Position numbers and translations under genes: made by a program
Assembly (NCBI GenBank): GCA_045046875.1
Contig: JASFYY010000118.1
Coordinates: 1 to 64,000, forward strand
From: Verrucomicrobiota bacterium
GTDB lineage: Bacteria; Verrucomicrobiota; Verrucomicrobiia; Verrucomicrobiales; DEV007
Length of the DNA: 64,000 nucleotides
Reading direction: 5' to 3'
Shown here: in pieces, positions 4,659-54,859 of the stretch
How positions within the stretch are numbered: the first letter of the stretch is position 1
Layout: each line of letters opens with the position of its first letter
The notes under the pieces: model-generated
Database searches by the model: none
The model's input: the letters and a program-made list of their open reading frames with translations, nothing else
Told to the model about the DNA's origin: nothing

Positions 4659-5798
4659 TTAATCCTGCTTTATTTCAAAGTCGGGAATGGCCAGGTTTTT
4701 TGCCGTTTTCATCGGCCTCCGCAGCGCTTCGCGCATCCGCTGCACTTCATCCCCTGCACGACGATCGGTACAATCAGGATGCACCTCGTCACTCGCGATC
4801 AAACCCATCAGTTTCAAACAAGCCGCCGTGCTGTGTTTATACGACGCTGCACTGCCCTGCTCATTCAAGCGGAACACCGAATCCTCCAATGACTGGAACG
4901 CTTCGAACAGCTTATACACCTGGGTATCAAAATGATCTCCACCCACACCCAGCGCATGGGTTTTATCCGCACAAGAATCAAACAACCACATATCCCGCGC
5001 TGCACAGATCAAGGGGCAAGCGCTCACCCCCGCACCGATCAATAAAGGCGAACCCAAACGAATGGCGGTCGCGATGCCATAATCATCCCCACTGTGCGGA
5101 ACAAAGTCCAGGCCAAGGTCACGGCACATCGCAGACCAATAGAGAAAATGGGGTTCATCGAGAGTAGAGATTTTTCCCGCGACAATTTTTTCATGCCCCG
5201 CCAGTTGATGCAACAACCAAGGTTCATAAGGCGTCGCCCAGGATACAAATGATGGCTCCAGCGCATGCACAATCATCGGCACGTTCACCTGCTCGGCAAT
5301 CTCAAAATACGCATCGCGACGGCGTTCGGGATCCAGCTCGTTCAACTGGCGCGAAGTCATGATCATCACTTCAACTTTGTCAAAAGACTGGGCAATGTCG
5401 AGATGTGGACGGTACCACTCTGCTTTGAACGTATCACCCTGCGCACCCACCGCCGTGGTTCCACAAATAATCGTCGGCTCTGGAAATGAAGCCCGGAATC
5501 GCTCGATCACCTCACGGTAAAGATCTTCGGAAATTTCAAAAATGTAACCAGTATCCGCATTCAATACAAACACCAGATCCACCCCATAATACTCACCGCA
5601 CTTCAGCATCCAACGCACACTGCGCTCGAATCCCTGCCAATCAGGTTTACCCTCGGCAAAAGGCAGCAGCGTCGCCACACAAATCCTCGCTTTGCGCCGA
5701 TGATTCACCAATGACTCCTCAGCTGTGAAAGCCCACTGGGTCTCCGCCCAGCGAGTGGTCGGAGTCAGCTCAGCTGGATCTGAAATCAAATCCCTCAT
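4659..5798 (-). CDS. Dihydrodipicolinate synthase-like (class I aldolase) family protein
   Basis: LLPF..G.PDW, NADTGY, GKIS (candidate Schiff-base Lys), SGDD; start chosen at ATG 5798. Confidence 0.65.
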   Translation of the reverse strand: MRDLISDPAELTPTTRWAETQWAFTAEESLVNHRRKARICVATLLPFAEGKPDWQGFERSVRWMLKCGEYYGVDLVFVLNADTGYIFEISEDLYREVIERFRASFPEPTIICGTTAVGAQGDTFKAEWYRPHLDIAQSFDKVEVMIMTSRQLNELDPERRRDAYFEIAEQVNVPMIVHALEPSFVSWATPYEPWLLHQLAGHEKIVAGKISTLDEPHFLYWSAMCRDLGLDFVPHSGDDYGIATAIRLGSPLLIGAGVSACPLICAARDMWLFDSCADKTHALGVGGDHFDTQVYKLFEAFQSLEDSVFRLNEQGSAASYKHSTAACLKLMGLIASDEVHPDCTDRRAGDEVQRMREALRRPMKTAKNLAIPDFEIKQD

Positions 5799-49468: not shown

Positions 49469-50524
49469 TTATTCGGCCAACGTTGTCCAGTAATAGTAAG
49501 CTTCTGGACTGATACCTTTCAAGCGTTGCAGGATCGTAAAATTTTCCGGTAGCTGGTGGTCTTTGATTTGATCAATGTGTGAAACATCGAAAACAGGGAG
49601 ATTTTCGGAAATTGAATCACGTCCGATAATCGAAACGAGGGCTGCGGTTTTTGCAGCAGCGATTTTGGCCTGCGGCAGTCGGAAGCGGCAATCAATCAAG
49701 TGATTGGGCAGCTGCTTGATGCCGCGACGAAGGAGGCGGGTATGTTCCGTTTCAGTGAACCCTTTCAAATCCAGGGAGCAAAGTTGAAAGCAAGTTTCGA
49801 TGGTGTCGGCAAGGTAATCCGCGTAGCTGGGGGCGGAATCGCGGTAGGAGCATTCGGCTGAGTGTGCCGTTCGGTTGGCAGCTGCAACAGATTCTAGATC
49901 AGTTACTACATCGTAGAGTTGTGCAATGTCGAAGAGTTGCTTGATCACTTGTTGACTGAAGCGCTCGGTCAAAGGCACGCCGATGGTGTTGGGAGCAAAG
50001 GCGGTGAGTTTGTCGCCGAGTAGAGCATTCACCGTGGGCGTAGTCACAAATACGGGTTTCGATGTTTCAATGAAGGGAGTCGTTATAGATTTCTCGACAA
50101 GATCGCTGAGGGTGTTTTTCTCGGTGACGATATCGAGCAGGATGGGAGTTTCACGCCCAGGACGGAGGGGCGAATCGTAGTAGAATTTGTAATGAAGCCG
50201 TTTGGGCAGTCGATGCTCTCCGCGCAACTGTTCTTCCCAACGGGAAAAGGGTGTATCCGTTAATAGTGAATCGAGAATGGGAGCCAACAAGCCTGCATCG
50301 GTATCACAGACGATGTCGATATCGATGGACAGACGTTGCGGCTTGGGCAAATGCAGCAACAGCGAGGTGCCGCCTTTGAAAACAAAACCCAGACTGCTAT
50401 GGGATAGCGCGCAGAGCAAGGTAAGGGCAAAAATAGCCCGTTCGAGGATCTCAGGATCGACCGCGTTCAAGCCTTCCCGTTGGGATTCGATCCATTCACG
50501 GCTATGACAATGCGGCTCGATCAT
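49469..50524 (-). CDS. AbiEii/AbiGii-family nucleotidyltransferase toxin (type IV TA)
   Basis: FVFKGGTSL..H.....RLSIDID, LLDI, DKLTAF, KQLFD. Confidence 0.9.
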   Translation of the reverse strand: MIEPHCHSREWIESQREGLNAVDPEILERAIFALTLLCALSHSSLGFVFKGGTSLLLHLPKPQRLSIDIDIVCDTDAGLLAPILDSLLTDTPFSRWEEQLRGEHRLPKRLHYKFYYDSPLRPGRETPILLDIVTEKNTLSDLVEKSITTPFIETSKPVFVTTPTVNALLGDKLTAFAPNTIGVPLTERFSQQVIKQLFDIAQLYDVVTDLESVAAANRTAHSAECSYRDSAPSYADYLADTIETCFQLCSLDLKGFTETEHTRLLRRGIKQLPNHLIDCRFRLPQAKIAAAKTAALVSIIGRDSISENLPVFDVSHIDQIKDHQLPENFTILQRLKGISPEAYYYWTTLAE

Positions 50525-50527
50525 GGA

Positions 50528-52621
50528 TCAGATGATGGAAGGGAGCAATTCTTTCACATCGATTTTGCGCCGCTCGGCGTAGCGTTTGAAAGCGGTGAGG
50601 TTGATTCGTTTAGCTGAAGTCAGGTTGTGCAACAAGCGGCGGTATTCTTCCAGCTCGTAAAGTCCGAGCTTTTGGATTTCGTAATAAAGATCGATCAGGG
50701 TGTGCTCTATAGGCGAGCGTTTTTCGACGTGATCGGAGGACAGACGCGGGCGCAGGATGATCGTATCTTCTGTTTCCAAGGAAAAGGACTTTGCTGCTTC
50801 TCCGAGGGGATGAATGACGACCCTGTGTCCGGCATCGCGCAGGGAATCGGCGACCGGCTCGAAGGCGTCGCGATCCACCATCAGGAAGGTGGCGTGACGG
50901 GTTGGCAGATGATGGAAATAGGCAGCAAGTTCGCGGGTGCTCCAGAGGGTGTGGTCGAGCAGAGGGAAGTCTTGCTTGAGGCTTTTCTGCAGCGATTGCA
51001 TCACAGCAATGTTCTGATCGGGAAGAAAAGCTTCGGGCAGATCGGAATACCAGCCGCGACCAGCGTCATGAATCAGGCCCTCGCGCATCCAGTCCTGCAG
51101 GTAACGTTTGATGGTAGCGGATTCGTAATGCAGAGCCTCGGCTTCGATGGTCTTCTGAATGGTGGCTAGGTCGATGTAGTGACGGGAGAGGCCGAAGAGT
51201 TTGGGTAGCAGTTCCCCGGCGACGTAGTGCTTGCCGTCGAGGTAGGCGAGCGCGGTTTTTTCGTCCTGTTCGATGGCGATCTCGACAGCACGTTTGGCGC
51301 GGGCTAGGAGGGATTTGGAGTGGTGTGATTTGTTTCGGGATTCAAAAACTAAGTCGCGAATTTTATTTTGAATATGTTCAGGAGCCAACCAAATCTTAAA
51401 ATCAGCAATATCACTGGGATAGAGTTCAATTTGACCAGAAGAACCACTGTATCTTTGTTCCACTTGAAGCTGACCTGCAGGACTGTTCAGAAAAGTTGCC
51501 AAATAAGTAGGGTCGATGGAGTGCTCCTTAATTTTGATAATAGTAACATGGTTGTCAGGCAAAGCTGGGTAAGGTTCTAAATAGGCAGCAGAGCGTCCTA
51601 TGGTGCCTACACCAGTTCCATTAATAAGAACATTGCCTTTCTCAATAAGTAGAGAGTTGTCCCGAGGCTGAGCAAATCGATTTCCATCATCGATACGAAC
51701 TGTCCCTTTGGCCACATGTTTCGAGTTCACTACAGGTAAACCTTTCTCAGTGTAGTCGGGTTGTCTGCCCCTACTGATTTGAGACGATAAATTTCCAAGG
51801 ATTTCTAACTCACCAGCTTGAGCAATTTTATTTTCAAGAGCTTCAAATTTTGGGTGGAAAAAATTAGCATCATACCGTTTCGCAGCGAATACATCACTGG
51901 CTGGTTTTTCATAACTCAATGGATTGGGCGGCTCCCAGTTATCGAGCTTGAGCGCGGAGAGGAGGGTTTGTTCGGCTTTGTCGCGGGCTTGTTCAGAACA
52001 CTCCAGCGCGATGCGTGCCGCTTGGACTTTTCCAACAATTTCCCGTTTTAGTTCAGTAGATAGTTGAGGGATCAATACTTGGTCAACGTCTTCCAATAAA
52101 AAGCCTGTTTGAACTGTTCCCCTACGAAATCTTTGTATTTGGGAAGCACCTAATTTAGACTCTAGGTAAATTGCCAAAAATTCAGCTTCTATAGAATGGG
52201 GTCGAAAAATGGCTAACTTACATGAACAAGTTGCTTTCCGGTCAGATCCTACCAAAGACAGAGCACCAACGGTTCCAACTATAGACAGCAAGACGTCCCC
52301 TTTTTCCAAGTGGGAGCGTTTCATGTGATTATCAGCAAATGCTTCGGATGTTATTTCGATTGGATTAGATTGCTCGATAAAAAATGGTCCTGTTACATCC
52401 TGTCCGCGATAATAGGGAATCCCGCTCTCAATGAATGAATCTGAAATTGAGAAATGGTTGCCGTCAGAAACAGCTACTAAATCAGCAATTGAGAAAGTTT
52501 TTCTAGAAGCTAGATTTTTTTCTATTAAAACATGGGATTTCTTGAAAAATTCTGCGTCGATGCGTTTCGTGCGTTCGAGATCGTAAAGTCGAATCTCGGT
52601 TGCTTCCAGCCCCTCCAACAA
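50528..52621 (-). CDS. Two-TRD restriction specificity (HsdS-like) subunit fused to AbiEi-like (DUF6577-like) antitoxin
   Basis: Repeated RIDAEFF/RYDANFF, GDVLLSIVGTVG and GNVLINGTGVGTIGRS TRD motifs, helix AKRAVEIAIEQD. No stop follows; the frame continues into a wHTH (TIKRYL..WMREGLIHDAGRGWY), FPLLD..LWST, IEHTLIDL, RYAERR. Confidence 0.88.
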   Translation of the reverse strand: MLEGLEATEIRLYDLERTKRIDAEFFKKSHVLIEKNLASRKTFSIADLVAVSDGNHFSISDSFIESGIPYYRGQDVTGPFFIEQSNPIEITSEAFADNHMKRSHLEKGDVLLSIVGTVGALSLVGSDRKATCSCKLAIFRPHSIEAEFLAIYLESKLGASQIQRFRRGTVQTGFLLEDVDQVLIPQLSTELKREIVGKVQAARIALECSEQARDKAEQTLLSALKLDNWEPPNPLSYEKPASDVFAAKRYDANFFHPKFEALENKIAQAGELEILGNLSSQISRGRQPDYTEKGLPVVNSKHVAKGTVRIDDGNRFAQPRDNSLLIEKGNVLINGTGVGTIGRSAAYLEPYPALPDNHVTIIKIKEHSIDPTYLATFLNSPAGQLQVEQRYSGSSGQIELYPSDIADFKIWLAPEHIQNKIRDLVFESRNKSHHSKSLLARAKRAVEIAIEQDEKTALAYLDGKHYVAGELLPKLFGLSRHYIDLATIQKTIEAEALHYESATIKRYLQDWMREGLIHDAGRGWYSDLPEAFLPDQNIAVMQSLQKSLKQDFPLLDHTLWSTRELAAYFHHLPTRHATFLMVDRDAFEPVADSLRDAGHRVVIHPLGEAAKSFSLETEDTIILRPRLSSDHVEKRSPIEHTLIDLYYEIQKLGLYELEEYRRLLHNLTSAKRINLTAFKRYAERRKIDVKELLPSII

Positions 52622-52663
52622 GTCCTCGTAACGAGCTTTGTCGAAGGGGCTTACCCTTTTCCC
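52608..52663 (-). promoter_or_regulatory. Candidate -1 programmed ribosomal frameshift signal
   Basis: G_GGA_AAA (52663-52657), 5-nt spacer, 14-bp stem (52651-52638 with 52621-52608) enclosing a 4-bp inner hairpin. Confidence 0.65.
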
Positions 52664-54756
52664 GGCGCGAACGACAGGCCCTCTCGTTTAGCGAACTCCC
52701 CAAAGGCCTCCGCAATTCCATCCTGCGTCTTGCCGTCGTGATTGAACAAGTCGTGTTTCACGATCAGATGCCCATGCCCATCGAGCACAAACTCATCGAG
52801 ACTGCTTGCGGTCGCTTCGTAGCGATTAGGCACCTCATCCCATTTGTCCGCCACCTGCTTGCGGTCACTTCCATTTCCTTCCTTGATCTCCAACAAATCC
52901 TTGCGTTTCAAATAAATCTTCTCCCCCGAGTTGTCTTTACTCGACTCCTGCATCGTCGCAAAAAAGATCGGGTAATCGTCTTTTTTCGGACAGAGTTTCT
53001 CGTCCCACTTCTGCACCAACAGCACCGAAGTCTTAGTTCCCGTGTGAGGCTTGAACACATTGCCATGCAGTCCCACCACCGCCAGAATGCGACAGTGCTC
53101 CATGATGTATTCGCGCAGGTGTTTGTCAGAGGAATTATTAAACCGCCCCTGTGGCAGCACTACCGCCATGCGTCCACCGGGTTTCAAAAAATCCAGATTG
53201 CGTTCGATGAACAACAAGTCTCTACCGACTTTCGTCTGGTATTTGCCATTGGGCTTTTTGCCCAGGTCATACTTGGCGAGAATACGTGACTCTTTTATGT
53301 CCCCGGCAAAAGGCGGGTTTGCCAGCAGCACATCAAAGTTGAAATGATGATCACTGTTTTTCTTCGCCCGCAGTTTTTTCAGCTTCTTCCAGCCTTGATT
53401 ATAAGTATCGATCCACTCTTCATCCTTGGTTTTTTCATCCCAGCGCTCCCAATCCAGTGTATTGAGATGCAACACATTGGTCTGTCCATCCCCAGCGATC
53501 AAGTTAAGCGTGCGCGCCACCCGCACCGAACGTTCGTCAAAATCTATCGCGAAGACCTTGTCGTTCACGTAGTCGGTGCAACGCTGCGATTTTTCCTCAG
53601 CGGTGAACAAATGACTCTTCGGCAGTCCCTCGTCGGCGAGGATTTTCTCCCACACATGAAAGATCGAGTGAACCGGAAAACCACAACTGCCTGCCGCAGT
53701 ATCGATCAGCGTCTCATCCTCCTTGGGATCCAGCATCTTTACGCACATGTCGATGACATAACGCGGAGTGAAGTATTGCCCCTTTTCGCCCTTGCTCGAT
53801 TTGTTGATCAGGTATTCGAAAGCCTCGTCCACTACATCGAGGTTGGAGTTGAAAAGCTTCACATCCTGCAGGGACGAAACACAAACTGAAAGATGGGAAG
53901 CGGTCAGGTCGATCTTGGAATCCGGACTGAAAACGCCTTCCCATTTTTTCTTAGCTAGATTAAAAAGTTCGCCGATCTTCTCCTTCAGCTCGGTTTCGGT
54001 ATCACCGTAGTTGCGAAACTCCAGATGGCGCTTTTTGTTCCGCCCCGATGACATTTCATCAAAGAGCTTGGTGAAAATCAGTTTGAACAATTCCTCGAAA
54101 ACATCCACCCCGGCATTGGCCAGCACCTCGTCCTCCATTTCGAGAATCAAATCCTTGAGCGATTTGCGCTCGTTGATGAGCTTGTCCTTTTTGACTAAGT
54201 CATCAATCGTCCAGCGCTCGGTGAGGATGTCCGAAAGTTTTTCCGTCGCTTTGGGGATACCAGGAATGTCCTCGAAAAAATTCGGATCCTTGCGGTGGTA
54301 ATACGAGATCGACTCCCCATTAGTCCACACTCCGATTGGAGCACCCGTAGCATTGCAATAGGATTTGAGCTGCTCCTTGCCGTCTTTGAGTTTGGGTTTT
54401 TTGAGCTCGACGATCAGATAAACCGAACGCGTATCCTGTTTATCAAAAATGACAATGTCCGCACGCTTTTTCTCCCGCCCGAAGCTGACCGAATACTCCA
54501 GCTCCATACGGTCGAGCGGATAGTTGAGATCTTCATGCAATACGCGCAGATAGAGCTGACGAACAGCTTCTTCAGGCGTGAGTTTAATGTCCTTTTCCCG
54601 CACCAAGCAATGGATATAAGGGGCATCCTTGCCGCGAACCGTTTTTTCAAACACCAATTTCTCGAAAGCCTCAATCTGTTCCTTAGTAAATTGGCTGAGA
54701 CTATAGTTCGAGTCCTTAAGAATGGATGAGAGTTGGAAAGTGCTTATTTCAGTCAT
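52651..54756 (-). CDS. Endonuclease (HsdR-N-like PD-(D/E)xK)-N6-adenine methyltransferase fusion (type IIG/IIB-like)
   Basis: RADIVIF...IVELKK nuclease motif, KGQYFTPR, DTAAGSCGF (motif I), NPPF (motif IV); start chosen at ATG 54756. Confidence 0.92.
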   Translation of the reverse strand: MTEISTFQLSSILKDSNYSLSQFTKEQIEAFEKLVFEKTVRGKDAPYIHCLVREKDIKLTPEEAVRQLYLRVLHEDLNYPLDRMELEYSVSFGREKKRADIVIFDKQDTRSVYLIVELKKPKLKDGKEQLKSYCNATGAPIGVWTNGESISYYHRKDPNFFEDIPGIPKATEKLSDILTERWTIDDLVKKDKLINERKSLKDLILEMEDEVLANAGVDVFEELFKLIFTKLFDEMSSGRNKKRHLEFRNYGDTETELKEKIGELFNLAKKKWEGVFSPDSKIDLTASHLSVCVSSLQDVKLFNSNLDVVDEAFEYLINKSSKGEKGQYFTPRYVIDMCVKMLDPKEDETLIDTAAGSCGFPVHSIFHVWEKILADEGLPKSHLFTAEEKSQRCTDYVNDKVFAIDFDERSVRVARTLNLIAGDGQTNVLHLNTLDWERWDEKTKDEEWIDTYNQGWKKLKKLRAKKNSDHHFNFDVLLANPPFAGDIKESRILAKYDLGKKPNGKYQTKVGRDLLFIERNLDFLKPGGRMAVVLPQGRFNNSSDKHLREYIMEHCRILAVVGLHGNVFKPHTGTKTSVLLVQKWDEKLCPKKDDYPIFFATMQESSKDNSGEKIYLKRKDLLEIKEGNGSDRKQVADKWDEVPNRYEATASSLDEFVLDGHGHLIVKHDLFNHDGKTQDGIAEAFGEFAKREGLSFAPGKG

Positions 54757-54814
54757 CGTGATGCGAGTTAAAACCCTATTGAATAATAGGAACCTCACTA
54801 AAAATCAATACAAC

Positions 54815-54859
54815 AATCCCTCTTTGTCACTTTTTTAAAAAATGTGACAAAGAGGGATT
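54815..54859. promoter_or_regulatory. 16-bp perfect inverted repeat upstream of the defence operon
   Basis: aatccctctttgtcac (54815-54830) / gtgacaaagagggatt (54844-54859); 13-nt spacer ttttttaaaaaat. Confidence 0.7.

Follow-up and report, generated by a model that had tools for sequence, protein, structure and literature searches.

How can a restriction enzyme obtain its specificity subunit from a reading frame that has no start codon? This question is raised by an operon on the minus strand of a 64,000-nucleotide stretch of DNA (hereafter the window) from a Verrucomicrobiota bacterium (Verrucomicrobiales, lineage DEV007; assembly GCA_045046875.1, contig JASFYY010000118.1, positions 1 to 64,000). 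Its three open reading frames (ORFs) encode a fused restriction-modification protein (RM), a specificity part (S) that continues into an AbiEi-type antitoxin, and the toxin AbiEii. Comparison of the locus with its relatives leads us to favor, with a probability of about 0.88, programmed -1 ribosomal frameshifting that makes both RM and a longer RM-S chain. The slip looks like the only way in this genome to make both the S part and the antitoxin fused to it. To our knowledge, few cellular bacterial genes use programmed frameshifting.

The junction between RM and S

The RM gene ends on a slippery heptamer, G_GGA_AAA (52657..52663, minus strand, as for all genes and junction elements below), which lies in the RM reading phase. 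A 5-nt spacer follows (52652..52656), containing the final RM codon and the beginning of the RM stop TAA (52653-52651), which spans the border between spacer and stem. Next comes a putative stimulatory hairpin (52608..52651), recognized by its fold and its conservation in relatives. Its stem of 14 bp, two of them G-U, is formed by a 5' arm (52651-52638) and a 3' arm (52621-52608), and its 16-nt loop holds a small inner hairpin. The S frame is -1 relative to RM and is open from 52687 to 50528, with no ATG. Its first start-like codons are two TTGs (52621 and 52618), both within the 3' stem arm, and the word GAGGA stands 1 nt ahead of the first and 4 nt ahead of the second.

An earlier note on this DNA had described the in-phase heptamer, the spacer, the stem with its G-U pairs and inner hairpin, and the open -1 frame with its buried TTGs, and we re-found all of them at the place it named. 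Its proposed two-product layout is also supported. The lengths that it gave, 701 and about 1409 aa, are corrected here to 700 aa for RM and 699+709 = 1408 aa for the shifted chain, both counted from the ATG at 54753.

In the proposed mechanism, the hairpin would stall ribosomes on the RM mRNA while their P and A sites hold the heptamer. Unshifted ribosomes would terminate one codon later and release RM, and those slipping back by one base would continue through S and AbiEi to produce RM-S-AbiEi. RM and RM-S made from one message could then assemble into the (RM)2S architecture of the BsaXI/BcgI type. We infer that subunit stoichiometry and antitoxin dose would both be set by the frameshift.

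A signal conserved among relatives

Relatives were collected from at least 570 genome loci and at least 548 metagenome loci, taking the best 80 of each set. These 160 loci and the window, minus 9 without an RM end, 5 with too little downstream DNA and 7 duplicates, left 140 junctions. They comprise 123 with a start-less S frame at -1 (one of them, L027, assigned by hand), 4 in-frame fusions, 5 with S at +1, and 8 assigned by hand as having a separately started S or none. Three of these eight have S at -1 but with its own ATG and no heptamer. A slippery heptamer is present in 123/126 junctions with S at -1, among them all 123 start-less ones, and its in-phase background in RM genes is 429 in 67,062 codons (0.64% per codon). 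The types are U_UUU_UUU (65), U_UUU_UUC (15), G_GGA_AAG (37), G_GGA_AAA (5) and A_AAA_AAG (1). The spacer measures 5 nt in 122/123 start-less junctions, and the RM stop, placed 0 or 1 codon past the heptamer (70 vs 52 junctions), moves inside this constant spacer. The signal is missing from all eight junctions where S is separate or absent. An independent sample of 400 genomes from the phylum of the window contained 10 with a match, of which 7 carried the signal, 2 had an S with an ATG and 1 had no S that could be seen.

The five heptamers belong to the classes V_VV.A_AA.R and H_HH.U_UU.Y, rated the most efficient in E. coli (PMC4066793). On a FastTree phylogeny of the RM domain, the G-type heptamer requires 11 changes, at least 6 of them forced by strong branches. 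U and G types swap repeatedly, a pattern that could also come from recombination at the junction. A Shine-Dalgarno (SD)-like word 5-14 nt upstream accompanies 50/80 U-type vs 3/42 G-type junctions; an upstream stimulator of this kind is not conserved across the start-less -1 junctions. The signal is also found on a Klebsiella plasmid (L174, NZ_LR890357.1, ~4950-5010), where the RM stop lies nine codons past the heptamer, within the hairpin loop, and is absent from three more distant plasmid or phage homologs (L176-L178, ~30% identity). Five loci have longer S frames of 587-758 aa (L080, L100, L157, L059 and L071), and at least the first three appear to carry an extra target recognition domain (TRD) downstream of the same signal.

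This distribution bears on the view that an ancestral RM-S ORF was split by a chance indel or an assembly error and is without function. The window does come from an assembled genome of 163 contigs, and in-frame RM-S fusions exist. Nevertheless, the identical layout recurs in 123 distinct junctions, including the four nearest relatives. The hosts of these junctions belong to no fewer than seven phyla (Verrucomicrobiota, Bacteroidota, Pseudomonadota, Bacillota, Spirochaetota, Campylobacterota and Ignavibacteriota), and at most loci the S frame remains uninterrupted over ~480 codons. A related contig that reads across the heptamer and stem has no indel there; contigs from three sequencing runs provided related alleles only. 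The broken-gene view is already largely refuted, and we give it next to no credence.

S could be brought in frame in a second way, at a homopolymer run, by transcriptional slippage or by phase variation. Runs of 7 or 8 occur in 65/123 junctions, and locus L011 resembles the product of a single-T loss. Against this, the window locus has at most four A's, 39/123 junctions have no run longer than 4, and the bacterial cases described involve stretches of 9 A or T (PMC5009743). With its heptamer in ribosomal phase and a stem at 5 nt, the signal is suited to a ribosome, and slippage is therefore very unlikely to be the general explanation.

The stem itself could be aligned for 110 of the 123 loci, those with the standard loop length, giving 108 distinct rows. 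In these rows 97.9% of the stem cells are paired and five pairs have changed on both sides; none of 500 shuffles scored as high, and sliding the alignment out of register lowered pairing to 33-63%. One covarying pair occurs as U-A 78, C-G 15, G-C 8 and A-U 3 times. Codon choice is fixed at pairing positions, with Ser as AGC in 107/107 and Gly as GGG in 120/120 cases, codons whose usage in RM genes is 38% and 13%. A 60-nt segment with the hairpin outscores every control segment of the same RM gene in 119/123 loci vs 0/8 with a separate start or no S. Three hairpin sequence types, including longer and wholly different ones, are found at an identical offset. The alignment of homologs that the earlier note had proposed as a check thus came out in favor of its frameshift signal, with the -1 phase, heptamer, spacer and covarying stem all kept.

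That note had also pointed to the peptide upstream of the TTGs, and this is conserved as well, with Pro and Phe in 108/108 rows and the loop Tyr in 107/108, where both Tyr codons are used. Because the loop Tyr is kept while synonymous change is free, the stretch upstream of the TTGs is likely to be translated. No ATG, GTG or TTG stands ahead of the conserved Tyr in 108/122 junctions.

The alternative in the same note, a weak GAGGA/TTG start hidden by the hairpin, amounts to translational coupling. On reaching the end of RM, ribosomes would unfold the hairpin and start anew on a TTG of its 3' arm, giving separate RM and S-AbiEi (~697 aa) proteins. Coupling of hsdM and hsdS is known in EcoKI (PMC3510504), and a TTG, GTG or ATG does lie at the Leu-Leu codons in 97/108 rows, where gene callers place the S start. 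However, an SD-like word 4-12 nt before these codons is found in just 3/108 rows, and in 13/122 junctions a start codon is lacking throughout, the Leu-Leu codons included. Coupling needs no in-phase heptamer, fixed 5-nt spacer or conserved upstream peptide, and relatives with a truly separate start have neither the hairpin nor the peptide. It is weak as an account of this junction, and we consider it improbable.

In-frame fusions, BcgI-like loci and known recoding systems

A mirror layout speaks most strongly against coupling and in favor of the signal having a role in the subunit ratio. In four in-frame RM-S fusions the heptamer (U_UUU_UUU), the 5-nt spacer and the hairpin are kept, and the -1 frame runs into an immediate stop (4/4). 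Here a -1 slip would yield the short RM. Hairpins of the fused loci outscore all control segments in 2/4. The same mirror layout is seen in a 1179-aa in-frame RM-S fusion on plasmid pAQ6 of Synechococcus PCC 7002 (L173, NC_010480.1, ~5010-5090). Naturally fused versions, which the earlier note had suggested looking for, do exist and retain the signal, and coupling cannot account for a signal within an in-frame fusion. Whether the longer frame is the shifted or the unshifted one, selection seems to maintain both products, in line with what has been reviewed for dnaX (PMC5009743). Some close relatives with a common hairpin type have opposite polarity, L133 and L145 vs L030, L130, L140 and L152 (extension vs truncation).

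Published systems are compared here as far as the accessible parts of the cited papers describe them. E. coli dnaX (tau/gamma) resembles the family of the window in having a heptamer with a 3' stem and two chains with a common N-terminus that serve one complex (PMC5009743). Both polarities occur there too, the reversed layout having been proposed in some bacteria (PMC5009743). Unlike dnaX, the present genes are of another class, and in the window the slip is needed for the long product, to which it adds DNA specificity and an antitoxin. Phage lambda gpG/gpGT likewise slips near a gene end to give, in a set ratio, a chain extended at its C-terminus; it differs in being a tail assembly chaperone, at ~30:1, and not a host defense enzyme (PMC5009743).

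A second family, with an RM only 22% identical to that of the window, extends the picture. Krebes et al. described BcgI-like S genes of H. pylori without a start codon and engineered one (PMC3936762). Their S primer matches 25/401 Campylobacterota genomes, and in 12/12 BcgI-like loci fetched (L179-L190, ~position 1500) we found C_CCA_AAG, a 5-nt spacer with the stop, a hairpin and S at -1. The published H. pylori systems HP1472/HP1471, Hpy99XXII and HpyUM032XIII belong beside the window locus, in that Krebes et al. note a start-less S and the primer-matching genomes have heptamer, spacer and hairpin. In the parts of these reports available, the authors take the junction for a defect or for separate genes, and propose no frameshifting (PMC3936762, PMC4450513). 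HpyUM032XIII is active natively, at 99.96% of sites (PMC4450513); its own junction lies outside the 12 loci compared. A frameshift would offer a reason why such systems can be active despite an S reported as start-less, and it may also operate in BcgI-like systems that annotations have long called defective. In 8/12 of these loci the S frame ends early (85-219 aa), consistent with reported phase variation.

The Type IIB enzymes BsaXI and BcgI resemble the proteins of the window in combining a motor-less nuclease-methylase with a two-TRD S, and the known enzymes are (RM)2S (PMC11997821, PMC4027205), as is BsaXI in particular (PMC11997821). They differ in having RM and S as two genes, each with its own start, or joined in a single chain as in TstI and AloI, whereas the S of the window is start-less and carries an antitoxin (PMC11997821, PMC4027205). 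Identity is low, and the enzyme of the window is Type IIB-like, with putative SAM-dependent cleavage on either side of a bipartite site. In EcoKI, an engineered M-S fusion required additional free M in vitro (PMC3510504).

Several observations weigh against the frameshift or limit its reach. The window hairpin on its own is only moderately above chance (z = -2.17; 6/200 shuffles fold equally well), so it is conservation in relatives that sets the junction signal apart from chance, and the covariation shuffles ignore the relatedness of the rows. A start-like codon does precede the conserved Tyr in 14/122 junctions, which adds to those at the Leu-Leu codons. In a Bacteroidales clade (L012, L019, L135, L143, L206 and L207) S lies at +1 behind a five-T run and stop, with the hairpin intact; a -1 slip does not explain this hairpin, and the clade gives slippage some footing. 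GTG overlaps the RM stop in all 12 BcgI-like loci, making coupling possible there, although the published 26695 primer differs from the 12 loci at the GTG base. These 12 loci are close relatives of one another and not independent cases. TstI is a homotetramer that works without free RM (PMC4027205), which speaks against a need for free RM. Finally, G_GG.A_AA.A was called inefficient in earlier E. coli work (PMC4066793), and a 1:1 ratio of RM to RM-S is therefore not assured.

In the literature searched, in which subscription journals were mostly not covered, we found neither ribosomal frameshifting in a restriction-modification (R-M) operon nor a fusion of S to AbiEi described. The text and part of the supplement of Antonov 2013 contain no such R-M cluster, and the available portions of PMC3711429 (including part 2 of supplement file 2), PMC6158711, PMC3526280 and bioRxiv 10.1101/630434 contain no relevant statement. 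If true, our proposal would add a widespread frameshift class, in defense enzymes of at least eight phyla and with both polarities. It would also change the annotation of many specificity genes, with their false TTG starts and "defective" junctions, as well as the proper way to clone these enzymes.

The fused antitoxin, the upstream palindrome and the genes of the operon

S runs in frame into AbiEi both in the window and in the four relatives nearest to it, and AbiEii is next in each. The AbiEi-type antitoxin (50528..51226; DUF6577, PF20217; PADLOC AbiEi, E 1e-26) consists of a winged helix and a C-terminal domain. Its model (pLDDT, the predicted local distance difference test score, 89) has S. 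agalactiae AbiEi 6Y8Q as best fold match (E 1.4e-5), at a low template-modeling score of 0.35. AbiEii (49469..50524; PF08843; PADLOC AbiEii, E 1e-97) is a nucleotidyltransferase toxin of 351 aa whose own ATG lies 4 nt past the AbiEi stop, and its motifs KGGT and R-x-S-x-D-x-D are invariant in 11/11 aligned homologs. No in-frame start precedes the winged helix in the window or in L048, and those in the other three S-AbiEi loci are scattered and non-conserved. Because there is no conserved internal start, the antitoxin would come from the shifted chain, which would be the only antitoxin copy for the downstream AbiEii.

As in AbiE of S. agalactiae and M. tuberculosis Rv2827c-Rv2826c, a winged-helix antitoxin stands immediately before a nucleotidyltransferase toxin, with an inverted repeat upstream (PMC7319586; bioRxiv 10.64898/2026.01.19.700257). 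Known AbiE antitoxins are free ~23 kDa proteins of two-gene operons, whereas that of the window has neither a stand-alone gene nor its own start and would form the C-terminus of a frameshift-made restriction chain (PMC7319586; bioRxiv 10.64898/2026.01.19.700257). AbiEi's C-terminal domain is sufficient for antitoxicity, and AbiEi represses its own operon via inverted repeats (PMC7319586). AbiEi also binds to AbiEii and induces auto-phosphorylation of the toxin (bioRxiv 10.64898/2026.01.19.700257).

The complex of the AbiEi domain with AbiEii was predicted at 0.54 (best control 0.00), a mark at which calibration overlaps with mismatches. It was reached by 116/157 solved complexes and 2/215 mismatches, with 18/157 and both mismatches at or below 0.60. 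Prediction runs agree in at least 92% of contacts, the partner pLDDT is 84 or higher, and there is a known related complex. Binding is weakly supported by this prediction, and the fused antitoxin may neutralize the toxin.

Upstream of RM lies a near-perfect palindrome (54815..54859), with 22-nt arms at 54815-54836 and 54838-54859 and a GTCAC-N13-GTGAC core. A core of this type is found 77-95 nt upstream of RM in 5/5 S-AbiEi loci vs 0/139 others, and in the 5.59-Mb genome it is unique at up to one mismatch. Under a stricter consensus, the only other occurrence among 205 loci is at one Type IIG-AbiEi locus (L200, at the 3' end of abiEi), and the core is missing upstream of the stand-alone AbiEi loci. 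Upstream of RM, perfect inverted repeats were found in the window only; the degenerate core was needed to detect the others. The five loci form one clade and the pattern was derived from two of them, which tempers the association. It nevertheless makes the palindrome a candidate operator for the AbiEi winged-helix domain, at which the long chain would probably repress the operon. With the antitoxin in the long chain and the palindrome upstream, the cell would rely on the frameshift for its antitoxin and probably also for autorepression. A single recoding event would then tie together restriction, an abortive-infection toxin and transcriptional feedback. An Rfam match of the palindrome to a miRNA, below threshold, was taken as chance. 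A scan for promoters and terminators gave counts near shuffled expectation and no site upstream of RM.

A bolder and rather doubtful extension is a self-guarding defense operon gated by the frameshift, in which RM-S-AbiEi would be specificity subunit, antitoxin and autorepressor in one. A phage that blocked or destroyed the restriction complex, or disturbed translation, would then release AbiEii as an abortive-infection back-up. The analogy behind this idea is PrrC with EcoprrI. S. agalactiae AbiE gave no phage protection in E. coli (bioRxiv 10.64898/2026.01.19.700257), and a defense role of AbiEii is for this reason unproven.

RM itself (52651..54753, 700 aa) joins an HSDR_N_2 nuclease domain to an N6-adenine methyltransferase (PF13588, PF02384) and has no motor domain. 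Its closest solved relative by sequence is RM.BsaXI (E 3e-20), and PADLOC labels it "Type I methyltransferase". The ATG at 54753 is favored as its start over a GTG at 54798, since alignments to homologs start from residues 2-11 and 1-nt deletions occur at 54781 and 54795 in a related contig. The S part of the -1 frame (51227..52657, the AbiEi boundary being approximate; PADLOC Specificity_I, E 2e-87) has a linker helix, two TRDs, two conserved helices and no start codon. Its predicted model folds like PacII S and S.BsaXI, the latter being the best solved relative by fold. A nuclease-methylase fusion without an ATP motor, together with a two-TRD S, is a Type IIB trait. Membership in MADS, with MAD2 and MAD5 as comparison (bioRxiv 10.1101/2023.03.30.534895), was considered and rejected. 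These are the nearest NCBIfam models for RM and S, but scores fall under the cut-offs (318 of 720 and 115 of 400), and the neighboring genes do not make up an eight-gene mad operon (mad1-8). Between 51350 and 52580 the TRD-coding stretches have ~41% GC, vs 49-55% in RM, AbiEi and AbiEii, and vary among relatives; this contrast and variation mark them as swappable specificity cassettes.

The S-AbiEi fusion was not found in a 400-genome sample of the class. A search of longer proteins returned 39 matches. Of these, 33 are of the S-fusion type, with the common domain and linker; among the remaining 6, 5 are Type IIG enzymes with DUF6577 at their end (P0046, P0048-P0051). At two loci (L200, 1878-6039; L201, 5783-1604) a Type IIG R-M enzyme with C-terminal AbiEi (DUF6577) is followed by AbiEii. 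This is a second, separately arisen fusion of an R-M enzyme to an antitoxin, which hints at a general guard design. An unfused stand-alone AbiEi-AbiEii pair lies just upstream of another frameshift-type RM-S locus (L032, 2275-3963).

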